Positions 4,611 through 64,000 of a stretch of DNA of 64,000 nt are shown in pieces. The notes under the pieces are model-generated. The model did not search any database. It saw only the letters and a program-made list of their open reading frames with translations, and was not told the origin of the DNA. Made by a program: the position numbers and the translations under genes. Position 1 is the first letter of the stretch, and each line of letters opens with the position of its first letter. This stretch comes from Escherichia coli (GTDB lineage Bacteria > Pseudomonadota > Gammaproteobacteria > Enterobacterales > Enterobacteriaceae): NCBI RefSeq assembly GCF_044647545.1, contig NZ_CP172818.1. One strand, written 5' to 3'.

Positions 4611-5882
4611 ATGGAAGACGACTGCGACATTATTATTATTGGTGCCGGTATTGCAGGCACCGCTTGCGCGTTACGCTGCGCGCGAGCGGGTTTATCCGTT
4701 TTGTTACTGGAACGCGCTGAAATCCCCGGCAGCAAAAATCTTTCCGGCGGGCGTTTATATACCCAGGCGCTCGCGGAACTCCTCCCACAATTTCATCTGA
4801 CCGCGCCTCTTGAACGACGCATCACTCACGAAAGCCTTTCCCTGTTAACGCCGGATGGCGCAACGACGTTTTCCAGCTTACAGCCCGGCGGTGAATCCTG
4901 GAGTGTATTACGTGCACGGTTCGATCCGTGGCTGGTTGCCGAAGCCGAAAAAGAAGGTGTCGAATGCATCCCCGGTGCGACGGTGGATGCGTTGTATGAA
5001 GAAAACGGCAGGGTGTGTGGTGTCATTTGTGGTGACGATATTCTCCGCGCCTGTTATGTGGTGCTGGCAGAAGGTGCCAACAGCGTCCTGGCTGAACGTC
5101 ACGGGTTAGTGACTCGTCCTGCTGGCGAAGCGATGGCGTTGGGGATCAAAGAAGTGCTGTCGCTGGAAACATCCGCTATTGAAGAACGTTTTCATCTGGA
5201 GAATAACGAAGGCGCAGCGTTGCTGTTCAGCGGCGGGATCTGTGATGACTTACCCGGCGGCGCATTTCTTTATACTAATCAACAAACGCTCTCGTTAGGG
5301 ATTGTTTGCCCGCTCTCTTCCCTTACGCAAAGTCGTGTTCCGGCAAGCGAGCTGCTGGCTCGCTTTAAAACGCATCCGGCAGTGCGCCCGCTTATCAAAA
5401 ACACGGAATCACTGGAGTATGGTGCGCATCTGGTGCCAGAAGGTGGCTTGCACAGTATGCCGGTGCAATACGCCGGTAACGGCTGGCTGCTGCTGGGCGA
5501 TGCGTTGCGCAGTTGCGTCAATACCGGAATTTCCGTGCGCGGCATGGATATGGCGCTAACTGGCGCGCAGGCGGCGGCACAAACGCTGATAAGCGCCTGC
5601 CAGCACCGCGAGCCGCAAAATCTGTTTGCGCTTTATCATCACAACGTAGAGCGCAGCCTGCTGTGGGATGTTCTACAACGTTATCAGCATGTTCCGGCGC
5701 TTTTGCAACGCCCTGGCTGGTATCGGGCGTGGCCTGCGTTAATGCAGGATATTTCCCGCGATTTATGGGATCAGGGTGATAAACCTGTTCCACCGCTGCG
5801 CCAGTTATTCTGGCGTCATTTACGTCGTCACGGCCTGTGGCATCTGGCGGGCGATGTTATCAGGAGTCTGCGATGTCTGTAG
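4611..5882 (+). CDS. ygcN: FAD-dependent oxidoreductase, FixC-like electron-transfer flavoprotein-quinone oxidoreductase
   Basis: ORF track 4581-5882 (alternative start); ATG at 4611 gives MEDDCDIIIIGAGIAGTACA with a Rossmann GxGxxG FAD-binding N-terminus. Confidence 0.85.
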   Translation: MEDDCDIIIIGAGIAGTACALRCARAGLSVLLLERAEIPGSKNLSGGRLYTQALAELLPQFHLTAPLERRITHESLSLLTPDGATTFSSLQPGGESWSVLRARFDPWLVAEAEKEGVECIPGATVDALYEENGRVCGVICGDDILRACYVVLAEGANSVLAERHGLVTRPAGEAMALGIKEVLSLETSAIEERFHLENNEGAALLFSGGICDDLPGGAFLYTNQQTLSLGIVCPLSSLTQSRVPASELLARFKTHPAVRPLIKNTESLEYGAHLVPEGGLHSMPVQYAGNGWLLLGDALRSCVNTGISVRGMDMALTGAQAAAQTLISACQHREPQNLFALYHHNVERSLLWDVLQRYQHVPALLQRPGWYRAWPALMQDISRDLWDQGDKPVPPLRQLFWRHLRRHGLWHLAGDVIRSLRCL

Positions 5883-6149: not shown

Positions 6150-6725
6150 ATGCCCCTCTTACACCTGCTCCGCCAGAATCCGGTGATTGCTGCCGTTAAA
6201 GATAATGCCAGCCTGCAACTGGCAATCGACTCTGAATGCCAGTTTATTTCCGTGTTGTACGGCAATATCTGCACCATCAGTCATATCGTCAAAAAGATTA
6301 AAAGTGCCGGGAAATATGCCTTTATTCATGTCGATTTGCTGGAAGGCGCATCGAACAAAGAAGTGGTGATTCAGTTTCTGAAACTGGTGACCGAGGCGGA
6401 CGGCATTATCAGCACGAAAGCATCGATGCTGAAAGCAGCAAGAGCGGAAGGTTTTTTCTGTATTCATCGCCTGTTTATTGTTGATTCGATTTCGTTTCAC
6501 AACATTGATAAGCAAGTTGCGCAATCGAATCCGGATTGTATTGAGATCCTGCCTGGCTGTATGCCCAAAGTGCTGGGCTGGGTGACGGAGAAAATCCGCC
6601 AACCGCTGATTGCTGGCGGGCTGGTGTGCGATGAAGAAGATGCGCGTAATGCGATTAACGCAGGTGTCGTGGCGCTTTCCACCACGAATACCGGGGTCTG
6701 GACGCTAGCGAAAAAATTGCTTTGA
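6150..6725 (+). CDS. ygcP: GlpP-like glycerol-3-phosphate-responsive antiterminator family protein
   Basis: 191-aa ORF; protein recognised as YgcP (GlpP family). Confidence 0.8.
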   Translation: MPLLHLLRQNPVIAAVKDNASLQLAIDSECQFISVLYGNICTISHIVKKIKSAGKYAFIHVDLLEGASNKEVVIQFLKLVTEADGIISTKASMLKAARAEGFFCIHRLFIVDSISFHNIDKQVAQSNPDCIEILPGCMPKVLGWVTEKIRQPLIAGGLVCDEEDARNAINAGVVALSTTNTGVWTLAKKLL

Positions 6726-6764
6726 CGGGATAATCGTAACGAATTGAATTTGTGTGATTTGTAG

Positions 6765-6830
6765 GCTGTACGCCACATCGGACATTCAGCGCCTGATGCG
6801 ACGCTTGACGCGTCTTATCAGGCCTACAAG
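6765..6830. repeat. REP element between ygcP and ygcQ
   Basis: gcctgatgcgacgcttgacgcgtcttatcaggcctac at 6791-6827 is a near-perfect REP consensus. Confidence 0.75.
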
Positions 6831-6871
6831 TCCCCAGGCCAGAACCGTAGGCAGGATCATCCAGCAACACG

Positions 6872-7732
6872 TTATTGGCAATCTGCGTGAATGTTTGTCA
6901 CCATTGCCTCCAGCACCACTTTCCAGTCATCAACCACGCCAACATCTGCCTGTGAAAATACCGCTGCGCTGGCGTCATGATTAATCGCCACCACAAACTT
7001 GCTATTGCATACGCCCGCCATTAACGCTGCTGCGCCAGAAGCGCCAACAACAATACACACCTCAGGTGCCAGCAGATGTCCGGAAATACCAATCACTTTT
7101 TCAGCATCAACGCCACCGTTCATCACTCGCGCCCGACTGTAGCCCACTTCGGCTCCCAGCTTTTCTGCCAGCATAGCGATTTCCTGGTTATCTGCCTCTC
7201 CGCCCTGCCCCACCACCAGCACCCGTCTGGCTTCAGCTAATGGGTCGCGGGTAACATTTTTCAGGTTTTCTAGGCTAACCAGCCAGTCGGGAAGCGCGCC
7301 GGGGACAATGTTCAGTTGCTGCATCCCAGAGGGCAACGTGGCGTTTTTATCTGCTCCCGCCTGACGCGCCAGCGAAAGGCATAGCGGGCGTTTGTCTGTT
7401 TGCAGCGTCGCCGTCAACGCATTTCCCCAGTGGGATTTGCGCACGCTTACGGTTGGAATATCTAACGAAGTCACCTGGCAGATGCTTGCACCATGTAAAC
7501 GCCAGGCCAGCCGGGTCGACAGTTCATCGCCAAACGTTCCCGGCGGAAAGAGAACAACGTCCGCAGGCGTTCGCTGCCACTGTTCCACCAACGCATCCAG
7601 CACCTGTTCCGCCACTACGGGCTGAGGTTCAATCTGCCAGTGCGCCAGGGTACAACCGCTGAAATCCTGCGCCGCCAGCCAGCTCGCTATTGCGGCATTC
7701 TCCTGATTTATTGTCACAATTGCGATATTCAT
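6872..7732 (-). CDS. ygcQ: electron transfer flavoprotein alpha subunit-like (FixB-like)
   Basis: ORF track 6872-7765; likely start at MNIAIVTINQENAAIASWL (286 aa). Confidence 0.8.
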   Translation of the reverse strand: MNIAIVTINQENAAIASWLAAQDFSGCTLAHWQIEPQPVVAEQVLDALVEQWQRTPADVVLFPPGTFGDELSTRLAWRLHGASICQVTSLDIPTVSVRKSHWGNALTATLQTDKRPLCLSLARQAGADKNATLPSGMQQLNIVPGALPDWLVSLENLKNVTRDPLAEARRVLVVGQGGEADNQEIAMLAEKLGAEVGYSRARVMNGGVDAEKVIGISGHLLAPEVCIVVGASGAAALMAGVCNSKFVVAINHDASAAVFSQADVGVVDDWKVVLEAMVTNIHADCQ

Positions 7733-8508
7733 GGCTGCATCCTTTGGCGTAAATAGTTCTGCCATAGCTTTTGCGCTTTTTCTGCTACCGTTTGCCCATC
7801 AATCAGCGTCGCTCCGCGTCGTTGCTCTGCTCTTGCCAGATGCAGACACTGCATCGCTGGCAATTCGACAGCAACAGTTTTACGGATAATTGCTGCTTTC
7901 CCCGCAGCCATTCGCTGGCGCATTCCCGGTACTGGCAAGGCCACTTCACCACACTGGCGCACGGCAATCACCGCAGGCAAGCGAACCCGGCAACAGCGCA
8001 GCCCGTTTTCAGTACGCTGTTCAAGGGTGATAAACGGCGCGTCGAGAGTAAAACGCTCCACCTGGGTGAAGCAGGGCCAGCCCAGCATTTCCGCCAGCAA
8101 AAATGGCGTTTGCCCATTCTGCCCTTCGCTGCTTTGGCAGCCGGTAATGATCAGATCCAGCGGATTCTGACGCTGCCATTCGGCAATATGGCGAGCGACA
8201 AATTCCGGCGCAAAGCGCAGATCTGCCACCGTCTCCAGCAATACAGCGTCCTCAAACCCAAGAGCCATGAGATAGCGCAGCCAGTGCAACGCCCGTTCAT
8301 CCCCCATGCTCAACGCGGTTAAAGACATCGGCGTACCGTTTTTTCTCTGCGCCAACAGCAGCGCGGCGGCAGCCTGTTCATCAGCACCGAGTAAACTTCG
8401 CAGTAGCGAAACATCTGGTCCAATATTACCCTGAGCCGCCGCCTGCCACTCTTTTTCCGCCAGCATTCCGGCATCCGGTTCGGCTTTAAACGCTAACAGA
8501 ATGTTCAT
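7729..8508 (-). CDS. ygcR: electron transfer flavoprotein beta subunit-like (FixA-like)
   Basis: ORF track 7729-8514; begins MNILLAFKAEPDAGM; overlaps the ygcQ start. Confidence 0.8.
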   Translation of the reverse strand: MNILLAFKAEPDAGMLAEKEWQAAAQGNIGPDVSLLRSLLGADEQAAAALLLAQRKNGTPMSLTALSMGDERALHWLRYLMALGFEDAVLLETVADLRFAPEFVARHIAEWQRQNPLDLIITGCQSSEGQNGQTPFLLAEMLGWPCFTQVERFTLDAPFITLEQRTENGLRCCRVRLPAVIAVRQCGEVALPVPGMRQRMAAGKAAIIRKTVAVELPAMQCLHLARAEQRRGATLIDGQTVAEKAQKLWQNYLRQRMQP

Positions 8509-15510: not shown

Positions 15511-15964
15511 TAACTACACTCGATGTCTTTAGAATAAAAGACAATACGAATCGCACTTTATCAATTTTCACTTAAAGTATGAACTGGATATCTTTATTCA
15601 TAAGAACTATTCATCAACAGCGTATAGAGGCGGTTATGTAAAACCACTCATTAGCCTCAAAACAAAGACAAACTTCCAGATTTATTACTTAATCAATGAA
15701 TAACAAGCTTAAAAAATACACTGTTATTCTAAAGAAAAAATTAACAGGCATTAATTAATATTAAAAAAAATAATATATTAAAATTTCTTAACGGTTTAAG
15801 GATTATACAAATAACACTTTGATTAAATTTGATTTTTTGTATCGATAATTGTGAACTTATCTGGCATGGAGAACTATTTTGAACATGAGGTGTTATGTGG
15901 ATATGTTGCTTATTACAAGTACAGCTAATATAAAAACTTGAGAAAGAGATAACGGGTTATATGG
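15511..15964. other. AT-rich non-coding spacer between the CRISPR remnant and the intact array (possible fossil leader)
   Basis: No credible ORFs; strongly AT-rich; sits on the leader side of the degenerate repeats by analogy with the intact array. Confidence 0.4.
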
Positions 15965-16367
15965 TGGTTCATCCCCGCTGGCGCGGGGAACACGTCTTTT
16001 TGACCGGCCGGTAAATCGTCTGCCTGCGGTTTATCCCCGCTGGCGCGGGGAACACAAACCATTCTCGCAATCAAGGACTATTCCTAGACGGTTTATCCCC
16101 GCTGGCGCGGGGAACACGGTCGCAGGGAATACAAAGCCGTGCATCCTGCTCGGTTTATCCCCGCTGGCGCGGGGAACACTGGCTCTGCAACAGCAGCACT
16201 ATGACCCCGTCGGTTTATCCCCGCTGGCGCGGGGAACACGAAAAGCTTATGATCGTTAATGCCGCAAACACCGGTTTATCCCCGCTGGCGCGGGGAACAC
16301 ATTACACCTATGTGCGAGCGCCCGGTTTTTGCCGCTAGCGGTTTATCCCCGCTGGCGCGGGGAACAC
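15965..16367 (-). CRISPR. Type I-E CRISPR array, 7 repeats and 6 spacers, no adjacent cas genes
   Basis: Repeat cggtttatccccgctggcgcggggaacac (29 bp) at 16027, 16089, 16151, 16211, 16272 and 16339, plus a degenerate terminal copy at about 15965; spacers 31-38 bp; orientation inferred from the AT-rich leader on the high-coordinate side. Confidence 0.95.
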
Positions 16368-49446: not shown

Positions 49447-50895
49447 ATGTTATCCGGCTATATTGCAGGAGCGATTATGAAACAAGAAGTTATCCTGGTA
49501 CTCGACTGTGGCGCGACCAATGTCAGGGCCATCGCGGTTAATCGGCAGGGAAAAATTGTTGCCCGCGCCTCAACGCCTAATGCCAGCGATATCGCGATGG
49601 AAAACAACACCTGGCACCAGTGGTCTTTAGACGCCATTTTGCAACGCTTTGCTGATTGCTGTCGGCAAATCAATAGTGAACTGACTGATTGCCACATCCG
49701 CGGTATCGCCGTCACCACCTTTGGTGTGGATGGCGCTCTGGTAGATAAGCAAGGCAATCTGCTCTATCCGATCATTAGCTGGAAATGTCCGCGAACAGCA
49801 GCGGTAATGGACAATATTGAACGGTTGATCTCCGCACAGCAGTTGCAGGCTATTTCTGGCGTCGGAGCCTTTAGTTTCAATACGTTATATAAGTTGGTGT
49901 GGTTGAAAGAAAATCATCCACAACTGCTGGAACGCGCGCACGCCTGGCTCTTTATTTCGTCGCTGATTAACCACCGTTTAACCGGCGAATTCACTACTGA
50001 TATTACGATGGCCGGAACCAGCCAGATGCTGGATATCCAGCAACGCGATTTCAGTCCGCAAATTTTACAAGCCACCGGTATTCCACGCCGACTCTTCCCT
50101 CGTCTGGTGGAAGCGGGTGAACAGATTGGTACGCTACAGAACAGCGCCGCAGCAATGCTCGGCTTATCCGTTGGCATACCGGTGATTTCCGCAGGTCACG
50201 ATACCCAGTTCGCTCTTTTTGGCGCTGGTGCCGAACAAAATGAACCCGTGCTCTCTTCCGGTACATGGGAAATTTTAATGGTCCGCAGCGCCCAGGTTGA
50301 TACTTCGCTGTTAAGTCAGTACGCCGGTTCCACCTGCGAACTGGATAGCCAGGCAGGGTTGTATAACCCAGGTATGCAATGGCTGGCATCCGGCGTGCTG
50401 GAATGGGTGAGAAAACTGTTCTGGACGGCTGAAACTCCCTGGCAAATGTTGATTGAAGAAGCTCGTCTGATCGCACCTGGCGCGGATGGTGTGAAAATGC
50501 AGTGTGATTTATTGTCGTGTCAGAACGCTGGCTGGCAAGGAGTGACGCTTAATACCACGCGGGGGCATTTCTATCGCGCGGCGCTGGAAGGGTTAACTGC
50601 GCAATTACAGCGCAATCTACAGATGCTGGAAAAAATCGGGCACTTTAAAGCCTCTGAATTATTGTTAGTCGGCGGAGGAAGTCGCAACACATTGTGGAAT
50701 CAGATTAAAGCCAATATGCTTGATATTCCGGTAAAAGTTCTCGACGACGCCGAAACGACCGTCGCAGGAGCTGCGCTGTTCGGTTGGTATGGCGTAGGGG
50801 AATTTAACAGCCCGGAAGAAGCCCGCGCGCAGATTCATTATCAGTACCGTTATTTCTACCCGCAAACTGAACCTGAATTTATAGAGGAAGTGTGA
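49447..50895 (+). CDS. fucK: L-fuculokinase
   Basis: 482-aa ORF (alternative internal start [21 protein letters not shown] at 49477); FGGY kinase. Confidence 0.92.
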
Positions 50896-50896
50896 A

Positions 50897-51319
50897 ATGC
50901 TGAAAACAATTTCGCCGTTAATTTCTCCCGAACTATTGAAAGTGCTGGCAGAGATGGGGCATGGAGATGAAATTATTTTTTCCGATGCTCACTTTCCCGC
51001 CCATTCGATGGGACCGCAGGTGATCCGCGCTGATGGCCTGTTGGTGAGTGACTTGCTCCAGGCGATTATCCCGTTATTTGAACTGGACAGTTATGCACCG
51101 CCGCTGGTGATGATGGCGGCGGTAGAAGGTGACACTCTCGATCCTGAAGTAGAACGACGTTATCGTAATGCGCTTTCACTACAAGCCCCCTGTCCTGACA
51201 TCATCCGCATCAATCGTTTTGCGTTTTATGAACGGGCGCAAAAAGCCTTTGCGATCGTTATCACAGGCGAACGAGCGAAGTACGGGAATATTCTTTTAAA
51301 AAAAGGGGTAACACCGTAA
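50897..51319 (+). CDS. fucU: L-fucose mutarotase
   Basis: 140-aa ORF (RbsD/FucU family). Confidence 0.92.
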
Positions 51320-51376
51320 TCTCATACCGGTACGCCCGCATGACGCGGGCGGTTATCGAATGATGGGGTGAAAAAT

Positions 51377-52108
51377 ATGAAAGCGGCACGCCAGCAAGCG
51401 ATAGTCGACCTGCTGCTGAACCATACCAGCCTGACCACGGAAGCTCTCTCTGAACAGCTAAAGGTCAGTAAAGAAACCATTCGTCGCGATCTCAATGAAT
51501 TACAGACGCAGGGTAAAATTCTGCGCAATCATGGACGCGCTAAATATATCCACCGTCAAAATCAAGACAGTGGCGATCCCTTTCACATCCGGTTGAAAAG
51601 CCATTATGCGCATAAAGCAGATATCGCGCGCGAGGCGCTCGCGTGGATTGAAGAAGGGATGGTAATAGCATTAGACGCCAGTTCAACCTGCTGGTATCTG
51701 GCACGCCAGTTGCCTGACATCAACATCCAGGTCTTCACCAATAGCCATCCGATTTGCCATGAACTCGGTAAACGTGAACGCATTCAACTGATCAGTTCCG
51801 GCGGCACACTTGAGCGCAAATATGGTTGTTACGTCAATCCCTCGCTGATTTCCCAGCTTAAATCGCTGGAAATCGATCTGTTTATTTTTTCTTGTGAAGG
51901 GATCGATAGCAGCGGCGCACTGTGGGACTCCAATGCCATCAACGCTGATTACAAATCAATGCTATTAAAACGCGCCGCACAATCGTTGTTATTGATTGAT
52001 AAAAGTAAATTTAATCGTTCAGGGGAAGCCCGCATCGGGCATCTGGATGAGGTCACGCACATTATTTCTGATGAGCGCCAGGTTGCAACTTCTTTGGTAA
52101 CAGCCTGA
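51377..52108 (+). CDS. fucR: DeoR-family activator of the fuc regulon
   Basis: ORF track 51368-52108; MKAARQQAIVDLLLNHTSLTTEALSEQL with an N-terminal HTH (243 aa). Confidence 0.92.
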   Translation: MKAARQQAIVDLLLNHTSLTTEALSEQLKVSKETIRRDLNELQTQGKILRNHGRAKYIHRQNQDSGDPFHIRLKSHYAHKADIAREALAWIEEGMVIALDASSTCWYLARQLPDINIQVFTNSHPICHELGKRERIQLISSGGTLERKYGCYVNPSLISQLKSLEIDLFIFSCEGIDSSGALWDSNAINADYKSMLLKRAAQSLLLIDKSKFNRSGEARIGHLDEVTHIISDERQVATSLVTA

Positions 52109-52151
52109 CGGAAAGGGTAGCAGGCCGGAGACGACGCCCCGGCCTTGCCTG

Positions 52152-53252
52152 TTATCGCTCGTCGCGACGACCACCCACCGCAGCCCAGATACGGCGGACG
52201 TGCACCGTCACTTCTTCGCGATCGTGATACAACTGCCGCGCCTGGATCTGAGCATTTATGCCATGTTCATCAAGCTGTGCCTGAATATACGCCAGATTGT
52301 GTGACACTTCTTCGTAGCGTTTTTTCATCGGCAGTTTGAGGTTGAAAATGCTTTCACGGCACCAGCCATTAACCAGCCACTGCGCCATCAATGCCGCAAC
52401 TTTCGCCGGTTTTTCAACCATATCGCATACCATCCAGGAGATATTGCTGCGTGTCGGACGGAATTTGAAACCGTCTTCCCGCAGCCACGTCACCTGTCCG
52501 GTATCCATCAGACTTTGCGCCATCGGGCCGTTGTCGACGGAATAAACCCACATGTTGCGCTTCACCAGTTGGTAGGTCCAGCCGCCTGGGCAAGCGCCCA
52601 AATCCACCGCCCACATCCCGTTCGCCAGGCGTTCATCCCACTCATCCGCGGGAATAAACACATGAAATGCCTCTTCCAGTTTGAGCGTGGAACGACTCGG
52701 CGCATCTGCCGGAAATTTCAGGCGCGGAATGCCCATATAGAACGGCGAATTATTGTTGCTGTATGAGTAACCGGTATAGCAACAGCCTGGTGCAATAAAG
52801 AATACATGCACAACCGGACGCTTCGGCGTTTCATAGTTCGCCAGCACCCCCGCATCACGCAAGGCAGCGCGTAGCGGCACGGTGAATTTACGGCAGAATT
52901 TCAGCAACTCTTTGCTTTCGTTGGTATCGGCAACTTCAACACGCAGTTCACCGCCCTTCTCTACTACGCCCTGTAACATACCGACAATGGGGGTAATACG
53001 ATCTTCAGGCGGCAAATGCTGCAGGAGTTCCCCCACCACAAACCACTGGCGGGCAAAAATTAATGAACTGAACGGCAGCTCACGGATTAACTTATCGCCA
53101 TCATCAGGTTGATAACATTCATAAATGACATAACCCGCATTCTCTTTCACGCGGGCAAAACCGAAAATTTCCCGCTGACCGGCTTTATCGGTAATTTCTG
53201 CGGCGCACTCTTTTTCAAAGCCCGGACGGCACAGCAATACAACCTTATTCAT
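52152..53252 (-). CDS. rlmM: 23S rRNA 2'-O-ribose C2498 methyltransferase
   Basis: 366-aa ORF beginning [25 protein letters not shown]. Confidence 0.9.
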
Positions 53253-53640
53253 GACTTACGCCCTTGCGCTTTAAACGGATAGCACCAACTAACATTAACG
53301 CCCAGCCCGCAAGGAAGCTCACGCCGCCAACCGGTGTGACAAACGCCCACAAACGCAGATGGGACAGCGCCAGGCAATAAAGGCTGCCGCTGAACAGCAC
53401 CGTGCCTAACGCGAGGAAAACGCTACTCCAGTAAAACCAGATACTGATGCGACGCTGCATTGCCACCGCCAGACCTAAGATCGCCAGCGTGTGGAACGCC
53501 TGGTATTCGAGACCGGTCTGGATCCAGCCCATCTCAACGGCCCCCATGGTTTTACTTAACACATGCGCGCCAAAAGCGCCCAGAGCCACAAAAATGAAGC
53601 CGCTAATGGCGGCGAAAATCAGCATAAAACGGCTGGTCAT
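53245..53640 (-). CDS. ygdD: DUF423 inner-membrane protein
   Basis: 131-aa hydrophobic ORF; overlaps the rlmM start by 8 bp. Confidence 0.85.
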
Positions 53641-53658
53641 GGTCGTACCCTACGTAAA

Positions 53659-54576
53659 TTATTGTTCATAACGAAAGCGGAATTTTTCTTGTTCAGCAGC
53701 GGCTTTCGCCAGGATCCATTGACGAAAGGCGGCTATTTTACCCAGTTCTGCCTGGCTGTCATGACAAACCAGATAAAAAGCGTTTTTACTGACCAGAACA
53801 TCATTAAACGGGCAAACAAGACGTCCGGCTTCAATTTCAGATTGCGCCATCACGTTATTTGCCAGCGCCACTCCCTGCCCGTGGATAGCCGCTTGCAGCA
53901 CCATGGCGCTATGGCTAAAAATTGGCCCTTGCTGAACGTTGATATGATTTAACCCCAACTGTCGGGTATATGTCTGCCAGTCACGGCGTGACGCATCATG
54001 TAATAACGTATGTTTAGCCAGATCTTCCGGGGTCTTCAAGGGTTTTTCGCCAGTCAGCAGTAGCGGCGAACACACCGGCAATAAATATTCGGCGTACAGT
54101 TTTTCCACCCGTAGCCCCGGCCAGTTGCCACGACCATAAAATATCGCCACATCAACATCATCCGCCAGCTTATCTTCCTGACGATCAACCGCCTGGATTC
54201 GAACGTCAATTCCCGGATAAGCTGAATTAAAGCTGGAAAGTCGCGGAACCAACCAATGAATGGCGAAACTGGGGAGTAAACTGACCGTCAACGCCCCCTT
54301 GGCGCTACGGGCCTGGAGTTTACGCGTCGCTTCGGTTAATTGCGAAAATATCTCTTTGATATCGAGGAAATAGCTTTGCCCTTCCTCGGTCAGCAGGAGT
54401 GAACGATTACGGCGGCGGAACAGTTTTAGCCCCAAAAAATCCTCAAGAGACTTGATTTGATGACTTACTGCGGCCTGGGTCACAAAAAGCTCTTCTGCTG
54501 CGCGAGTGAAACTTAAATGGCGTGCTGCGGCATCAAAAACTCGTAAGGCATTTAGCGGTGGTAATCGTTTAGACAT
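53659..54576 (-). CDS. gcvA: LysR-family regulator of the glycine cleavage system
   Basis: 305-aa ORF; N-terminal LysR HTH (MSKRLPPLNALRVFDAAARHLSFTRAAEELFVTQAAVSHQI). Confidence 0.95.
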   Translation of the reverse strand: MSKRLPPLNALRVFDAAARHLSFTRAAEELFVTQAAVSHQIKSLEDFLGLKLFRRRNRSLLLTEEGQSYFLDIKEIFSQLTEATRKLQARSAKGALTVSLLPSFAIHWLVPRLSSFNSAYPGIDVRIQAVDRQEDKLADDVDVAIFYGRGNWPGLRVEKLYAEYLLPVCSPLLLTGEKPLKTPEDLAKHTLLHDASRRDWQTYTRQLGLNHINVQQGPIFSHSAMVLQAAIHGQGVALANNVMAQSEIEAGRLVCPFNDVLVSKNAFYLVCHDSQAELGKIAAFRQWILAKAAAEQEKFRFRYEQ

Positions 54577-54704
54577 GGCTTTTAAACTTTGATGTTAAAT
54601 GAATTTAACAATTAGATCACACTGTGTAACCTATTAGTTTTTTTAATCTGAGCCATTATAAATTGTCCGTTGAGCTTCTACCAGCAAATACCTATAGTGG
54701 CGGC

Positions 54705-54910
54705 ACTTCCTGAGCCGGAACGAAAAGTTTTATCGGAATGCGTGTTCTGGTGAACTTTTGGCTTACGGTTGTGATGTTGTGTTGTTGTGTTTGCAATTGG
54801 TCTGCGATTCAGACCATGGTAGCAAAGCTACCTTTTTTCACTTCCTGTACATTTACCCTGTCTGTCCATAGTGATTAATGTAGCACCGCCTAATTGCGGT
54901 GCTTTTTTTT
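54705..54910 (+). ncRNA. gcvB: GcvB small RNA
   Basis: acttcctgagccggaacgaaaag...; GU-rich seed gttgtgatgttgtgttgttgtgtttgc; terminator gcaccgcctaattgcggtgc + T8; divergent from gcvA. Confidence 0.92.
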
Positions 54911-54926
54911 ACCTTGCGATCGCGAA

Positions 54927-55154
54927 TTACTGATCCAGTTCGACCATCTCTTTCACGTCAGTACGGTTGATCTGCTGTTTGTTGCCATTAGCGTCTTTAT
55001 ACGAAATCATACCGGTATCGTTATCAGTCTGTGGTTTGCCGTCAGAGACGATGGTACGTCCGTCATTGGTGTGCATCACATAGTTCGAACCGGAACAGGC
55101 GCTCAGGGCAAAAGTCAGCATACAGGCAGAAATAATTGCGGCAGTCTTTTTCAT
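54927..55154 (-). CDS. ygdI: DUF903 lipoprotein
   Basis: 75-aa ORF with lipobox (LSAC) after a signal peptide. Confidence 0.85.
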
Positions 55155-55345
55155 CATCTTCTCCTTAAAGCGATTAATAAATCTTAATAGTATTGATTAA
55201 CAGGCTAAAATTAACGCCTAACACTATTCAGCATATGTTACTGACGCGGCTTCGCCAGGATATCCAGATAATTCTGATGGTTAGCACTCTCCTTGTATCA
55301 AAGTGAATTTTGCGTCACGATCGGTGCATCAAGCCGAGGAGTACC

Positions 55346-56551
55346 ATGAACGTTTTTAATCCCGCGCAGTTTCGCGCCCAGTTTCCCGCGCTACAGGATG
55401 CGGGCGTCTATCTCGACAGCGCCGCGACCGCGCTTAAACCTGAAGCCGTGGTTGAAGCCACCCGACAGTTTTATAGCCTGAGCGCCGGAAACGTCCATCG
55501 CAGCCAGTTTGCCGAAGCCCAACGCCTGACCGCGCGTTACGAAGCTGCGCGGGAAAAAGTGGCACAATTACTGAATGCACCGGATGACAAAAATATCGTC
55601 TGGACGCGCGGCACCACTGAATCCATCAACATGGTGGCACAATGCTATGCGCGTCCGCGTCTGCAACCGGGCGATGAGATTATTGTCAGCGTGGCAGAAC
55701 ACCACGCTAACCTCGTCCCCTGGCTGATGGTCGCCCAACAAACGGGAGCCCAAGTGGTGAAATTGCCGCTTAATGCGCAGCGATTGCCGGATGTCGATTT
55801 GTTGCCAGAACTGATCACACCTCGTAGTCGAATTCTTGCTCTGGGACAAATGTCGAACGTCACTGGCGGTTGCCCGGATCTGGCGCAAGCGATTACCTTT
55901 GCTCATTCAGCCGGGATGGTGGTGATGGTTGATGGTGCTCAGGGGGCGGTGCATTTCCCTGCGGATGTTCAGCAACTGGATATCGATTTCTATGCTTTCT
56001 CTGGTCACAAACTGTATGGCCCGACAGGCATCGGCGTGCTGTATGGCAAATCAGAACTGCTGGAAGCGATGTCACCCTGGCTGGGTGGCGGCAAAATGAT
56101 TCACGAAGTGAGTTTTGACGGCTTCACGACTCAATCTGCGCCGTGGAAACTGGAAGCCGGAACGCCAAATGTCGCTGGTGTTATAGGATTAAGCGCGGCG
56201 CTGGAATGGCTGGCAGATTACGATATCAACCAGGCCGAAAGCTGGAGCCGTAGCTTAGCAACGCTGGCGGAAGATGCGCTGGCAAAACGTCCTGGCTTCC
56301 GCTCATTTCGCTGCCAGGATTCCAGCCTGCTGGCCTTTGATTTTGCTGGAGTTCATCACAGCGATATGGTGACACTGCTGGCGGAGTACGGTATTGCCCT
56401 GCGCGCCGGGCAGCATTGCGCTCAGCCGCTACTGGCAGAATTAGGCGTAACCGGCACACTGCGCGCCTCTTTTGCGCCATATAATACAAAGAGTGATGTG
56501 GATGCGCTGGTGAATGCCGTTGACCGCGCGCTGGAATTATTGGTGGATTAA
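55346..56551 (+). CDS. csdA: cysteine sulfinate desulfinase / cysteine desulfurase
   Basis: ORF track 55310-56551; [16 protein letters not shown]...; PLP-dependent class V aminotransferase. Confidence 0.93.
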
Positions 56552-56994
56552 TGACGAACCCGCAATTCGCCGGACATCCGTTCGGCACAACCGTAACCGC
56601 AGAAACGTTACGCAATACCTTCGCACCGTTGACGCAATGGGAAGATAAATATCGCCAGTTGATCATGCTGGGGAAACAGCTTCCGGCTTTGCCAGACGAG
56701 TTAAAAGCGCAGGCTAAAGAGATTGCCGGATGCGAAAACCGCGTCTGGCTGGGATATACCGTGGCTGAAAACGGTAAAATGCACTTCTTTGGCGACAGCG
56801 AAGGGCGCATTGTGCGCGGCCTGCTGGCGGTGTTGTTGACTGCCGTTGAGGGCAAAACCGCCGCCGAATTGCAGGCACAGTCGCCGCTGGCATTGTTTGA
56901 TGAGCTGGGATTGCGTGCGCAACTTAGCGCCTCACGCAGCCAGGGGTTGAATGCGTTAAGCGAGGCGATTATCGCTGCGGCGAAGCAGGTTTAA
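56551..56994 (+). CDS. csdE: sulfur acceptor protein (SufE-like)
   Basis: 147-aa ORF; start overlaps the csdA stop. Confidence 0.9.
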
Positions 56995-57044
56995 GCACAG
57001 AACCGGGTCGGAAAGGACGTTTGCGTCGCATCCGACCTGATTGT

Positions 57045-57851
57045 TTACCCCTGACGCGCCGCTTTCGCCATCATCTTCTTCAGCGCATGAGAAACCGCAA
57101 CAAAACCAAAGGTGGCGGTCACCATCGTCGCGGCACCAAATCCAGATGCACAATCCATCCGCTTTGGCCCTTCCGCCGTAGCTTTCATTGCACAGACCGT
57201 GCCATCTGACTGCGGGTACACCAATGCTTCGGTAGAGAACACGCAATCCACGCCGAGCTTACCTTTACTGTTTTTCACTATGCCAAAATCGCTTTTCAGG
57301 CGCTCACGCAACTTCGCCGCCAGCGGGTCCTGAATCGTTTTCGCCAGATCGGTAACCTGAATCTGCGTCGGGTCAATCTGCCCACCCGCGCCACCGGTTG
57401 TGACCAGTGGGATTTTATTGCGCCGACAATAAGCAATCAGCGCCGCTTTGGGCCGTACACTATCAATGGCATCAATCACGTACGAATAACCCACGCTCAT
57501 ATACTGCGCTACGTTATCCGGCGTCACGAAATCATCCACCACCGTTACACGGCACTCCGGGTTAATCTGGCGAATACGCTCCGCCATAACTTCCGCTTTT
57601 GCCAGCCCAACGTTATCGCGCAGGGCATGAATTTGCCGATTGGTATTGGTGACGCACACATCATCCATATCGATAAGCGTGATTGAGCCAATCCCCGTGC
57701 GCGCCAGCGCTTCCGCCGCCCAGGAACCGACACCACCGATACCAACCACACAAATATGCGCGTCAGCAAACAGTTGCAATGCTTTTTCACCATACAGACG
57801 CGCTGTGCCACCAAAACGCTGACGCCATGCATCACTAATTACCACAGACAT
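57045..57851 (-). CDS. tcdA: tRNA threonylcarbamoyladenosine dehydratase (E1-like)
   Basis: 268-aa ORF with ThiF/MoeB-like GxGxxG (VVGIGGVGSWAAEALARTGIG). Confidence 0.9.
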   Translation of the reverse strand: MSVVISDAWRQRFGGTARLYGEKALQLFADAHICVVGIGGVGSWAAEALARTGIGSITLIDMDDVCVTNTNRQIHALRDNVGLAKAEVMAERIRQINPECRVTVVDDFVTPDNVAQYMSVGYSYVIDAIDSVRPKAALIAYCRRNKIPLVTTGGAGGQIDPTQIQVTDLAKTIQDPLAAKLRERLKSDFGIVKNSKGKLGVDCVFSTEALVYPQSDGTVCAMKATAEGPKRMDCASGFGAATMVTATFGFVAVSHALKKMMAKAARQG

Positions 57852-57926
57852 AGCACCTCAGAATTAAAAAGGGCGAGGTTTCCCTCACCCTGTCGTATCC
57901 GTCAAAACGGTATACAGAATAACACA

Positions 57927-59024
57927 TCAGCCGCTAAAGACGTTACCTGCGCCCGGGGCGGTTTTCAGCACCCAAACACGTCCATAGTGGTTGTACCAAC
58001 CTGCGCGGTGTCCGGCTTCCGGCCCGATACCTTGATAAATATCGAAGTGTTGGCCTTTGATTGCACCACCGACATCCAACGCCACCATCAGCCGTAGTTC
58101 GTACTGACCGTTAAATTTGCCGTTATTATCCAGCAGCGGCACTTCTGCCAGTAAGGTTGTACCAGGCGGGATAATGGAACGATCGGACGCAACTGAAGCG
58201 CGACCAACCAGCGGCACCGCACTTGCCCCTTTCACCGGAGCAAAAGATTGCGGTTTAAAGAAGACGAAAGACGGGTTCTGTTCCAGCAGCTCGCGAACCT
58301 CGGCTTCACTGTGTGTTTCACCCCAGTGACGAATCGCCTGCATCGACATATCTTCTTTTTTCACTTCGCCACGGTCGATCAGCACCTTACCAATGCTGCG
58401 ATAGGCATGACCGTTTTTCCCTGCATAGCTGAAAAAGTTAAGCGGACTGCCATCACCAAAGTCGATATACCCACTACCCTGCACATCCATAATGAAGTTA
58501 TCCATCAGAGAGTTGCTGTAAGCGAGGATGTATTTATCGCTCAATGCCCCCGCGTAGATCTCCGCACGAGACGGCAGACGACCACGTTTTGGCGGCATAC
58601 GGTAAATCGGATACTGAAACTCGCCCTGGCGGGTATGGCGCGCCTGAATTACTGGCGTGTAATAACCGGTAAACTGCACGTTACCATAGTTGTCGGCACC
58701 TTCCATCTGCCAGGCATCAATGCCGAACTGGCGCATATTGCGGGTATCACCGCCTGCGCGCAGCCACTCTTGCACCGCGTTATAAACATTACTCTGGTTG
58801 CCATACAGACGCGGTGACGAATTACGGATATGGTTAATTTGCTCGGCAAAATCACCGGCGTTAATCGGCGCGCCAACGGCATCTGGCTGGTTCACCAGAG
58901 AGAAAGGCTGGGTAAATTTCCCGTCTTTATATTGCTGTCCGCGATCGGTTGGTTTGGAAGAGCAGGCGGCAAGCATTGCCACAACCGTGCCCATAAGAAG
59001 GTACTTTACCCAACGTCCTTTCAT
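57927..59024 (-). CDS. mltA: membrane-bound lytic murein transglycosylase A
   Basis: ORF track extends to 59306, but the real protein starts MKGRWVKYLLMGTVVAMLAACSS (lipoprotein signal) at 59024 (365 aa). Confidence 0.92.
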   Translation of the reverse strand: MKGRWVKYLLMGTVVAMLAACSSKPTDRGQQYKDGKFTQPFSLVNQPDAVGAPINAGDFAEQINHIRNSSPRLYGNQSNVYNAVQEWLRAGGDTRNMRQFGIDAWQMEGADNYGNVQFTGYYTPVIQARHTRQGEFQYPIYRMPPKRGRLPSRAEIYAGALSDKYILAYSNSLMDNFIMDVQGSGYIDFGDGSPLNFFSYAGKNGHAYRSIGKVLIDRGEVKKEDMSMQAIRHWGETHSEAEVRELLEQNPSFVFFKPQSFAPVKGASAVPLVGRASVASDRSIIPPGTTLLAEVPLLDNNGKFNGQYELRLMVALDVGGAIKGQHFDIYQGIGPEAGHRAGWYNHYGRVWVLKTAPGAGNVFSG

Positions 59025-59232
59025 TGTTCTCTTCTTCAGGTTAAAAAATAAGGCGCAACGAAGATAACAAACCGCCGCGTTTAATGAAATGAGCAGCCTC
59101 TCCCTGACGCAAATTTTGCACAAAAACCAGGCTTTAGTGATTTGTTTTTGCTCAAAATCATACCAAATCCGTGATCTGGGTAAAAAAAAGGTTGCATGAA
59201 AACGCGAGCGGAGTATAGTGCGCATCCACGGA

Positions 59233-59309
<77 letters not shown>

Positions 59310-59342
59310 ATTAAAATTTGATGAAGTAAAGCAGTACGGTGA

Positions 59343-59419
<77 letters not shown>

Positions 59420-59452
59420 ATCAAAATTTAATGAAGTAAAGTAGTACGGTGA

Positions 59453-59529
<77 letters not shown>

Positions 59530-62500
59530 ATTATCTGAATACCCAAGTTTTCACAATCGTTTTTTTTATTTAAATCTTTCCTGAATCACAAAGTTTTTTA
59601 TCTCCCTTCCTCGAATAATCAATTACACTAAATTATCCCTTTCTGTATACTCAATCCCCGATATCCTTGTAATGATATTTTCATTACATCTAAATTCCCA
59701 ACGTTCAACTAAACACATCCACCCCAAAACATTTCTTCTTCAATCACCTAATAAACCCCTCATCCACAACTCCCCCCATTGATGATCAACACATCCATCA
59801 TCACAAATATTTATACTAATAAATCTCCACTCAAAAAAACAAAAAACAATGATGAATCGACTCATAAAATATCTTCAATTATACAAATGAATCCACTTTT
59901 CACAACTAATCTTTTTTCAAAACTAAAACTCAACATCAAAACAATAACCTTCCCATTTTTCCAATATCGTACCAACACAATACGTTTACCTTTAACCCAC
60001 CATCACTCACCCATACCATTTTCATCCATGATACACCGATATTTTCATCCCGAAATAATCCAATGATAAATTCCCAACCATTTGAATTAATCCCAACCAT
60101 TATTACAATAATACTATTCCTCCACGAAATCAATATTTCTATCCCCTCCCGAATCTCGATATTATTTTCACACCAACACAATAACTTCCCCTATAACAAT
60201 CTTCCCAACCCAAATAATCTCTAATCATATTCTATTTAACAATCCCACATTATTCTTAATAATAAATTAAAATTATTCTCTCTACAACCCAAAACACTCT
60301 AAAACACTACCAAACATTTTTATACACACTCACTTCAAAAACCACCCCAAAAATACTTACTGTATTTATATTTTAAATTATGAATTTCTTTAACCATCAC
60401 CCCTGATGATAAACCGAAACACACATAAATTTTTTCAATTCAAATCAACCCACCCATCACCAACAACCAAACAACATCCACACATATCTAAACTAAATTA
60501 TCCCCTCACTTTACGATTTCAACAATAAATCACAACTTACCAACATATATACTAAAAAATCAAATAATTACCCATTTTTTTCAACACATTCCCAATTTCC
60601 CTCTCACACTTTTGAAATAAAATAACAACATCTCTTCCCACATCCAATCCTGTACCCTCCTACCTAACAAAAAACGAATCCTACTCAAAATCCGATTTTC
60701 CAATAAACCGACTTACCAACACCAATAAAAACAACTTTTCCCTACAAATTTATACTTTAATTAAAACGAATCAAAATATCAATAACTCTCTACTTAATTC
60801 TTACATAAAATTTTAATAATATATCTTATTCATTTTTATTCTCCCTGATTAATATTTTTAATTACACTCACAAACCGTAACCCCATATATAATTTTTCTC
60901 ACCCACCATTCAAGAATACCCTCCCCCTCCGTTCCATAACATCCCCCCATAACCATTTCCTTCATGAATTAACACTTAAAATTCATCAAAAGATAACCAA
61001 TACAAACAATCTACCAAAAAAACAACATCACTCCTACATCAATTCAATATTTTATTCAATACTAATTGAATTAACAATATTCTTTAATGATTTACATCCC
61101 AATCTAACAATAAACAATTATATTCATACTATGGATTTACAAAACTATACGATATCTTCTAACTTATGATTAAAATTACTCATTAAATCATAAGATCTTA
61201 TCAAATTAAATTCATATCATTATACTACTACTTTTTCTTTTTTTATTTTAACCGATGTAACTACTCATTAAAAACAAAATCACTATGATTTCATCTAACA
61301 TAACAAATTATCCTTAACCACATTTTATATTCTTCTTCCACCAACTTCCTCGTTATGAGATTACATAATAACACCATCTCTTTTATCTTAAACAAATCCC
61401 ATTATACTACCCCCCTCATTTTTTATAATCAAAACTTCAAATATTCCCTATTTTTTACATCAAAAACATTAAACATTAAAAACAAATATTATCACACGAT
61501 CAATAATCTATTCTTTTCAATAATACATCACATCTATATTATCCATTCATTTTATCTTTTATATTTTATAAACCATTTACTACCATTCAATATTCACATT
61601 CAAACAGTACCTAAAATCTTTCCAAGTTTTCTTAATCCCTACACACTTCTTATCAAATCCATATCTAAATAAAATGTAATACATCTTTTACACCAAATCT
61701 CCCCAAAATCCCATTTACAATATTTCCTTCAAACAGTATTAAAAACATCCATCACATATCCATTATTATCCATATCCACCAACATGACTTTATACCGATA
61801 ATATTTATATTTTATCAATTTAATATAATTCCCCACTCTTTTTATTCTCCTCAATCAACCCATATCGATTTTAAACTAAAGATACCAATTATCCAGATTT
61901 AATATTCTCTTTACCACAATCCTTAACATCTCTCTCTTCACTCTATTTATCAACGTATATCCCTATACTATCCTCATACTTCACTACAATACTCTTCACC
62001 ACTCATCAGTTAAATTTAAAATACAACAACACAAAGTAATAAATAAAAAATACCACTTCGACACACACCTATTCAACTTTCTTCCACCAAACCCAAACTA
62101 ATAAATTGAATCAACCCATAAATCCCATCTTCACCCCATAACAAACACGAATCCATTCATAAATCATAAACAAACACATACTACAAATAAAAAAAATCCA
62201 ACTCCTACCCCCAATAATGATTAACACCCCAAATAACAATCTTTATACTTTTCTTTTACATACATCGATACACCACCCACCACCAACATACTAATCATCA
62301 TTTCTTTCCATTTTCCCCCAAACCACAATACCATTCTCTACACCCATAAAATCATCCATAATACTCTCCCCCAATCACACCTAAACCGACGTAAACAAAA
62401 ATCACCAGATTTTAACCAAAAAACTCACTCCAACTCATAAAAAATAACCGAACAACCGAATATATCATCCAATGACATGAAAATTAAAAACCCAATAAAA

Positions 62501-63641
62501 GAATGATCAACCAAACCATCATCACAATCATTAATAACACAACCTATAAAAACTAATATCTAACTAAATTAACGTCTTTTTAACACCATAATAACCCACA
62601 ACAATTCCTCTAAACCTTATTTAACTGATCCCAAATATTTATCGACATTTACACACCAATAATCTCTTTTAAATAAAATTCTCCCAGACACCCATAAAAC
62701 AATAAAGAAAAACATATTTATCCTCTTTTTTTTAATAACCAAGAATTTACCAAACAAACATAATAACAAACAAACAAACCAAAACAATAAACAATATTTT
62801 TATTATGAAACCAAAATAATTAATCCATATCATCATCTAAACATCCACCTACATCACACATACAACAACAAGAAATAAACCTCATCTAAAAAAAATCCAC
62901 TTTCTTTTATTTCATATAAATTTATATATAAAATTAATACTACGAATAAAATATATTTTCTCTAAATACATATTTAAAACAACAATACTCAATTTATGAA
63001 TTAAAATTCTTTCTCAAAAATCATAATCACAATATTCTTTTTTTTATACATAAAACAAAAAAAATAATCATCATAACTTAAATTAAATAATCTCACTTAT
63101 AAAACCGATAACTTTATTTTTTAATAATAAAAAGCATAACAATGAATTCAATTATTTAAAACAAATAAAATTCATCAAATTAAACTAAATTATAATAACA
63201 CAATATTTACAATTTATCAAAAAAAATTATTATTTTACCAAAAAATAAAACAAAAAACAAAAATTTAATTTTTCAAATACACAAACAACAACAAAACAAC
63301 AAATACATAATAATATAACGGGTGTTTTTTTGTTTCTTGTCTCCCATAAAAGAGCCAGCCATCTCAGACGACATTCCATATTTTTTTTTAACCACCCACC
63401 CAGAAATATAACCTCTCCATTCACACTTACACAATTATTTCATACTTATATCAATACTCCCAAAAAAAACAACACTCAAATAATAATACTCAAACAATAA
63501 CATACAAAATAACAACAAACAAACGAATTTTTAATTAAAAACTTTATTTTCAACGACATTCAAAATCCACATCATCACAAAACATCTAATATTCATAAAT
63601 TTATCTATCAACGAAATATAAATTCATAATAAATAAAAACA
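59530..63641. other. ~4.1 kb compositionally anomalous, non-coding block (G-depleted on + strand), identity unknown
   Basis: Sampled 60-nt lines contain 0-4 G against roughly equal A, C and T; almost no ORFs on either strand; starts the base after the metV CCA and ends the base before the amiC stop codon. Confidence 0.9.
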
Positions 63642-64000
63642 TTATCCCCTTCTCGCCAGCGTCGCCCCATCGGCAAAATACGCTTTAATTCCCGCAAGAA
63701 TAGACTCCGCAACTTCCTGCTGGAAAGTCGCCGTTTTCAGTTTACGCTCTTCCTCAACGTTACTGATAAACGCCGTTTCGACCAGAATGGAGGGAATATC
63801 TGGTGCCTTTAGTACGGCAAACCCAGCCTGTTCAACTTGATTTTTATGCAGCTTGTTGATTTTACCGAGCTTATTCAGCACCGCTTTACCAAACTTAAGG
63901 CTGTCGGCAATGGTCAGCGACTGCACCATATCGAACATAGTGTGGTCGACATAGCGGTCACCGCTTTTGCTTACGCCACCAATCAAGTCCGAGGCGTTCT
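63642..64000 (-). CDS. amiC: N-acetylmuramoyl-L-alanine amidase, C-terminal part (5' end beyond window)
   Basis: Reverse-strand translation ...[52 protein letters not shown] (Amidase_3 C-terminus); position after metV matches amiC synteny. Confidence 0.85.

Follow-up and report, generated by a model that had tools for sequence, protein, structure and literature searches.

The short G-containing island near the amiC end of the window, the 64,000-nt stretch of Escherichia coli DNA analysed here, is probably a blend of two natural metV-amiC alleles that arose in a reconstruction step rather than in a cell, a reading to which we give a probability of about 0.8. Judged from sequence comparison, the island would have no function and would be no real biological feature; it is most likely a sequence-reconstruction artefact. 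This reading can be built up from the G-poor block in which the island lies, from the second template that is visible inside the island, and from a series of functional and technical explanations that can be weighed against it.

The G-poor block and its natural counterpart

The window closes with the mltA - metZ/metW/metV - amiC region of E. coli, and the features needed to follow the argument are listed below.

59233-59529, + strand: metZ, metW and metV tRNA-Met genes (ARAGORN and Rfam tRNA matches); intact core, left boundary of the block
59530-63639, no strand assigned: the G-poor block, in which a natural islet of 5564 nt is copied with bases thinned out and all five genes destroyed
63316-63356, + strand: the patch, TAACGGGTGTTTTTTTGTTTCTtGTCTCCCATAAAAgAGCC, from the islet-free allele (native metV-amiC spacer nt 15 to about 55)
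63318-63331, + strand: part of the metZWV intrinsic terminator, namely its T7 tract and the 3' arm ACGGGTG, with no 5' arm ACACCC upstream
63357-63378, no strand assigned: right part of the island, AGCCATCTCAGACGACATTCC; islet PRD sequence AGCC[GG]AT[G]CTCAG[GG]AC[C]GACATTCC, in which only G and C (bracketed) are deleted
63379-63639, no strand assigned: remaining thinned islet, with the PRD gene's 5' end and the intergenic stretch between islet and amiC
63642-64000, - strand: amiC 3' end, stop TAA (complement TTA at 63642-63644); intact, with an islet-type junction, right boundary of the block
CFT073 c3405-c3410, - strand: the islet genes, for a phosphoglycerate dehydrogenase, a KpsF/GutQ isomerase, MalY/PatB, a PTS EIIC and a PRD antiterminator

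Both flanks of the block are intact and carry lineage-specific sequence. On the left, positions 50000 to 59530 are 100% identical to many RefSeq strains, and the whole of 1-59529, apart from a CRISPR array and an indel at 15763, is identical to the closest relatives compared. The array (15997-16337, repeat CGGTTTATCCCCGCTGGCGCGGGGAACAC) has a spacer content unlike that of these relatives, and the difference at 15763 is a single 1-nt indel. On the right, the amiC portion shows zero differences over 356 nt from the loci L004 (strain IMT16316) and L005. Two amiC SNPs, A at 63825 and A at 63939, are shared only by IMT16316 and FDAARGOS_497, with G present in 15 other loci, which shows that the sequence of the right flank is genuine and specific to this lineage. 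Strains with 100% identical flanks, including IMT16316, FDAARGOS_497, Ecol_881 and others, carry the intact islet directly between metV and amiC. Across the species, about 30% of E. coli have the islet at this position (about 31%, with the native spacer in about 69%).

Between these flanks, G makes up 113 of 4110 nt (2.7%), with a GC skew of about -0.8 to -1.0; the remaining 59.5 kb has an ordinary composition. The initial annotation had treated the block as an insert, a premise that proved wrong. A BLAST search with the block returned a gapped match of 76.5%, in 1578 genomes, to five - strand genes between metV and amiC. For a global alignment, the islet of IMT16316 (L004 2457-8020, 5564 nt) served as reference, and 4080 of the 4110 block bases (99.3%) form a common subsequence with it, compared with about 3080 in shuffled controls. 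Compared with the islet, the block has lost 1454 nt in net length. Deletions removed 883-891 of 998 G, 313-321 of 1601 T, 226-230 of 1233 C and 38-42 of 1732 A, which amounts on the + strand to 89% of G, 20% of T, 19% of C and 2% of A, or about 26% of the islet's bases. Under any scoring, at most 24 substitutions and at most 6 insertions separate the two sequences, and the open reading frames left in the block are junk of at most 105 aa. A foreign AT-rich insert can be rejected on the colinearity of the block with the natural islet, and a synthetic G-less cassette or three-letter DNA on the 113 G that remain, their dependence on context and the 99.3% islet subsequence. G-to-A hypermutation (APOBEC-like, DddA-like or by a T7-deaminase) and bisulfite-like conversion were also rejected, as the changes are deletions that do not preserve length; only 2-3 G>A substitutions were found against 881-891 G deletions.

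The pattern of base loss is blind to biology. Neither codon position nor genic or intergenic location had an effect, and the thinning begins and ends where the accessory islet does. G retention varied with context, from 46% in CGA and 27% in TGA to 1% for G before C. Homopolymers are uncompressed, and nanopore-like homopolymer compression was rejected on the long T and A runs that stand at full length. A is kept throughout 62700-63639 (L004 about 6700-8020), which leaves A-rich text before the island. A search for text corruption with the period of a FASTA line (60, 70 or 80) gave no significant signal; a period of 70 reached 6 times the mean power, a noise-level value among about 2800 frequencies. 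To our knowledge, a profile of 26% deletions with less than 1% substitutions and insertions, all on one strand, matches no raw-read error profile. About 1450 single-base deletions on one strand, without substitutions, confined to the islet and set between undiverged flanks, lead us to conclude that the block is a corrupted rendering of the islet. An artefact is also what would be expected of a pattern of this kind where flank-identical relatives carry the islet intact.

No copy of the block was found by BLAST in 5425-5426 complete RefSeq E. coli genomes, and non-exhaustive searches of 664 amiC contigs and, by way of the junk ORFs, of 15 billion proteins found none either. We regard it as very improbable that the strain actually carries the G-poor interval, whether through a novel G-excising, strand-specific process or as a synthesised or model-designed allele, with the island as a recombination patch that kept the T-tract half of a terminator. 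If the block were real DNA, which the evidence strongly opposes, it would imply an unprecedented mutational or design process.

Two probable templates in the island

A return to ordinary G content for about 60 nt at 63310-63375 had been noticed in the initial annotation, and the coordinates are right, with the G cluster proper at 63320-63370. These 51 nt hold 11 G (21.6%), close to the 24.4% of the normal part of the window, compared with 2.5% in the rest of the block. The sliding-window count proposed as a way to refute the island was run and places it beyond the variation of the block: the next-best 51-nt window holds 5 G, and at least 11 G in one window occurred with a frequency of 1e-4 in 20,000 permutations of the block's G positions. 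A binomial estimate corrected for all windows gives 5e-4. The described fall in G after the island, up to the amiC stop, is equally borne out, with four sparse G right of 63370 (63403, 63525, 63555 and 63613). The second-richest G cluster lies at 62450-62509, with 6 G in 60 nt that are mostly in TGA or CGA contexts; except for one inserted G at 62450, it carries no sign of a second template.

Within the island, a left and a right part can be told apart. The left part, the patch, is a 41-mer, TAACGGGTGTTTTTTTGTTTCTTGTCTCCCATAAAAGAGCC, in a G-poor interval that contains TAACGGGTGTTTTTTTGTTTCTTGTCTCCCAT. Positions 63316-63351 are identical to the native spacer at 35 of 36 positions (97%), and over 52 columns (63316-63367) the identity is 90.4%; the match occurs in 3353 genomes (E 2e-8), always at the metV-amiC locus and in none exactly. 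The comparison with the native metV-amiC spacer that had been suggested thus returns a clear match. An example of this spacer is the 73-nt sequence of BL21(DE3) (NC_012971.2 2785964-2786036), which fills the metV-amiC gap in strains that lack the islet. The local alignment score of the patch is 41 against the spacer and 31 against the islet segment, where the intact PRD gene carries AAAGTTTGTTTTTTTGTTCATTTCTGACAT. Patch and islet differ by about 10 changes that are not deletions, as read from the sequences side by side. For 63317-63347 the count is about 8 from every islet allele examined and one from the native spacer. The sole mismatch to the spacer within 63316-63351 is T at 63338, where the islet also has T.

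The islet-free spacer is of the type CTGGTC/AAAAAAGCGCC; CTTGTC and AAAAGAGCC, as they stand in the window, occur in no natural spacer examined. Natural spacers (loci L009, L010, L012 and L017) are themselves polymorphic at the site of 63337-63339, reading CTGGTC, CTGCTC or CTACTC. In L012, the native spacer stands beside amiC even though T6SS genes lie on that amiC side.

The right part of the island (63357-63378) can be derived in full from the islet by deleting G and C. The three G kept there, at 63358, 63367 and 63370, all coincide with G of the native spacer. Over the whole island, 10 of its 11 G can be paired, in the same order, with G of spacer nt 15-65, a stretch that has 11, so that G survives at places where it also stands in the islet-free allele.

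It could be argued that the island is simply a stretch of islet in which the thinning spared G by fluctuation or better quality, with no second template involved. The derivation of 63357-63378 from the islet fits this idea, as do the high C and T fidelity just after the island and the existence of an islet allele (SCU-124) with AAAAGATCC, which could account for the G at 63352. For the left part it is refuted. As aligned, 30 bases of the block cannot be explained by deletion from the islet; 9 of them fall inside 63319-63354, and so do 5 of the 6 non-islet G (63321, 63322, 63339, 63352 and 63354); outside the island there are only 21 non-islet bases in about 4070 nt. Taken with the roughly 8 non-deletion differences in 63317-63347, this leaves chance sparing with very little probability. 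Among the islet alleles of 1689 islet-bearing genomes, none contains the patch (best 95.3%), and no islet allele with ACGGGTGTTTTTTTGTTTCTTGTCTCCC was found in the same set. A natural chimera of the spacer and a truncated PRD gene was rejected as well, since a reconstructed, undegraded chimera used as a query found no genome that spans the junction.

The location of the patch is informative. Within the intact islet, the native spacer finds its best match at L004 7592-7628, the site of the patch, with a score of 19; the runner-up scores 13, and across 200 shuffles the mean was 12.1 and the maximum 17. By our own count from the alignment, spacer and islet are about 74% identical there over one 40-nt stretch. 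Both alleles share the strings TATAA, GTTTTTTTGTT and CATAAAA at this site, and the patch switches at TATAA on the left and at CATAAAA on the right. Reference coordinates run through the island from about 7595 to about 7636 with no jump or overlap. Counted from the printed sequences, the patch exceeds the segment of roughly 40 nt in whose place it stands by one base, so the PRD reading frame would shift. At the other end of the block, 59530-59547 (ATTATCTGAATACCCAAG) is compatible with the thinned junction of the islet as well as with nt 1-19 of the native spacer (ATTATTGAACACCCTAACG). The A at 59539 is the only base at the block start that the islet cannot supply, and it is present in the spacer; the fit of these first 18 nt to the spacer is imperfect. 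They may be a second, weaker blend of both alleles.

Three parts of the blend can be read directly from the sequence. The interval is islet text that has lost about 26% of + strand bases in the order G >> T ~ C >> A with no regard to coding. About 41 nt follow the islet-free spacer unthinned, taking in the terminator 3' arm, the T-tract and the next 20 nt or so. To the right of the patch, the text returns to the islet in register, keeping those G that the spacer also has. We infer a process guided by the islet-free allele that merged both templates wherever they could be aligned and rendered the accessory islet from a very poor single-strand source. Such a guide might have been a learned prior, or the reference, homologue or majority sequence behind a guided assembly, consensus or polishing step. 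Patch position, G correspondence and the coincidence of boundaries would all be accounted for if spacer bases were placed at the aligner's best match and the insertion kept the poor state of its source. Some observations stand against this account, among them the error profile without a raw-read counterpart and the imperfect fit of the first 18 nt of the block to the spacer. A simple reference-guided model predicts the last 20 nt or so of the spacer (GCGCCTTTTTATCA) beside amiC, but the junction is islet-type (CATTA joined to TCCCC). The similarity of about 74% at the patch site is also modest. Furthermore, the merging of two templates leaves the G-specificity and the near absence of substitutions unaccounted for.

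Candidate functions and alternative origins

Of the earlier suggestions, that of a surviving native fragment was right about the sequence, which is that of the native spacer with 1 mismatch in 36 nt, and wrong about its history. The patch is not an in-place survivor, because natural islet-bearing strains have no spacer remnant and the patch lies 3.79 kb from metV. As a member of the native spacer class, it has the high identity (nt 15 to about 66 only) and lacks occupancy of the whole metV-amiC interval, both junctions being islet-type.

The suggestion of a functional motif found no support. In the native spacer, the hairpin ACACCCuaaCGGGUGU and the U-run after it form the metZWV terminator, a second hairpin faces amiC, and the two fold with z-scores of -4.5 and -4.2. 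The island keeps the T7 run at 63325-63331 directly after ACGGGTG. Upstream of it stands AATAATATA instead of GAACACCCTA, so that only one hairpin arm is present, and the half-terminator lies 3.79 kb downstream of the end of metV (59529), compared with a native distance of about 11-14 nt. The proposed RNA folding of both strands gave nothing beyond shuffles for 63290-63390 (z -0.04 on the + strand, -0.54 on the - strand). No + strand terminator was found at the island by consensus scan, and no Rfam family matched there. A functional terminator or structured RNA was rejected on the lack of a fold, of an Rfam match and of the 5' arm. On the - strand, 63358-63372 shows a terminator-like pattern, GTCGTCTGAGATGGC followed by TGGCTCTTTT, which is a consensus match only. 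Three such sites occur in 4.8 kb against an expected 1.0, and the fold does not surpass that of shuffled sequences. An att-type direct repeat was likewise rejected: the island sequence occurs once in the window, with no direct-repeat partner near metV, and the natural islet has no integrase.

The island could also be taken as real DNA, a spacer patch brought by recombination or gene conversion with DNA of an islet-free strain into a decayed or engineered islet, the patch then being a remnant of a terminator or insulator that survived or still functions. Its switch points do lie in short matches shared by both alleles, as homology-dependent exchange would give. In addition, every query from the window, even from regions with the essential genes pyrG and eno, matches 5425 of 5426 RefSeq genomes, which suggests that the missing one is the source and that the window comes from a real deposited genome. 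However, no known mutational process fits about 1450 one-strand deletions between flanks of zero divergence, and the loss ignores codons. An islet-bearing genome has no spacer copy with which to recombine, and the homology amounts to only about 40 nt at about 74%. The hairpin is incomplete and unfolded, and both natural terminators after metV, the spacer type and the islet type, are destroyed in the window. Hardly any probability can be given to this explanation. As it stands, the piece is incapable of any action, being half a hairpin 3.8 kb from its tRNA operon and inside five destroyed genes.

A seam between two pieces had been suggested too, and this idea held in part. C and T retention is about 0.9 near metV, falls steadily over 5 kb to 0.41 just before the island, and jumps to 0.89 over the 100 reference nt that follow it, then runs at 0.62, 0.60 and finally 0.92 in the last 85 nt beside amiC. 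In the 150 reference nt before the island 26 of 76 C and T are retained, against 67 of 82 in the 150 after it (Fisher P 1e-9). The change in fidelity and the two switch points speak for a seam, but islet colinearity runs unbroken through the island, so that two unrelated pieces were not joined here. The sequence could consist of a metV-side piece that degrades with distance and a last piece of about 320 nt up to amiC, joined by way of an islet-free reference, and the reference-like text of the patch would suit such a joint. Against it are the lack of a coordinate jump or overlap, a G loss of about 90% on either side, and a fidelity towards amiC that is not monotonic. We hold a seam of this kind to be possible, if doubtful, and it is a sub-variant of the two-allele blend rather than an alternative to it.

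Somewhat less probable still is that block and island were written by a generative or neural model, such as a genome language model, a neural basecaller or a polisher. A model of this kind would render common sequence well and rare sequence badly, drift towards A-rich text and find its anchor again on a motif that it has often seen. Fidelity does track allele frequency, with the core (in 100% of genomes) perfect, the spacer of about 69% of strains nearly so and the islet of about 31% degraded, and it drifts and is then reset at the island. However, the lineage SNPs in amiC lie beyond what a model could infer, so the block would at least have been spliced between real flanks; a pure left-to-right model continuation is disfavoured on the same SNPs. 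Strict colinearity over 5.5 kb by deletion only is also not the failure mode described for such models.

Significance and comparison with known systems

Having no biological significance, the island is of value for quality control. In an otherwise perfect window, annotation would present the 4.1-kb interval as 'novel' DNA, AT-rich and without genes, although it is a known islet in corrupted form, and the island is a clue to the origin of the corruption in that a second, islet-free template appears to have taken part. Should the window stem from a deposited 'complete' genome, that record would have to be corrected at this locus. Composition scans would keep flagging foreign DNA here.

Two technical systems can be compared with the preferred reading, a reconstruction step that blended two alleles. 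In long generations, Evo 2 shows low-complexity collapse (bioRxiv 10.64898/2026.01.17.700093). The progressive compositional drift towards low complexity is similar, a resemblance only, whereas the window is colinear with a real template and has real, lineage-specific flanks. Nanopore repeat-calling errors at telomeres are strand-specific, systematic basecalling errors (PMC9414165). They too are technical, strand-specific, dependent on base and context, and unrelated to biology. They differ in being substitutions in tandem repeats, seen in reads, whereas the window has deletions in unique sequence of a finished consensus, which are limited to an accessory islet and come with a patch from the other allele.

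The natural counterparts are the two alleles themselves. With the native spacer, the patch shares the ACGGGTG arm, the T7 tract and GTTTCT.GTCTCCCATAAAA. It differs in having only nt 15 to about 55 (70) of the 73, without the 5' arm ACACCC and the second hairpin, and in its position, which is 3.79 kb away from metV and 285 nt short of amiC, whereas the spacer fills the gap. The islet genes c3405-c3410 have been described as 'PTS system, maltose/glucose specific' in PAI-CFT073-metV (PMC2831201). The islet forms the amiC-proximal end of PAI-CFT073-metV and can also stand alone between metV and amiC, as in IMT16316; its PRD gene is of the BglG/SacY antiterminator type. The block is colinear with this islet throughout, also in 63357-63639 and immediately to the left of the island, and differs from it in the deletion of about 26% of bases, the destruction of all five genes and the 41-nt patch in place of about 40 nt of the PRD gene.
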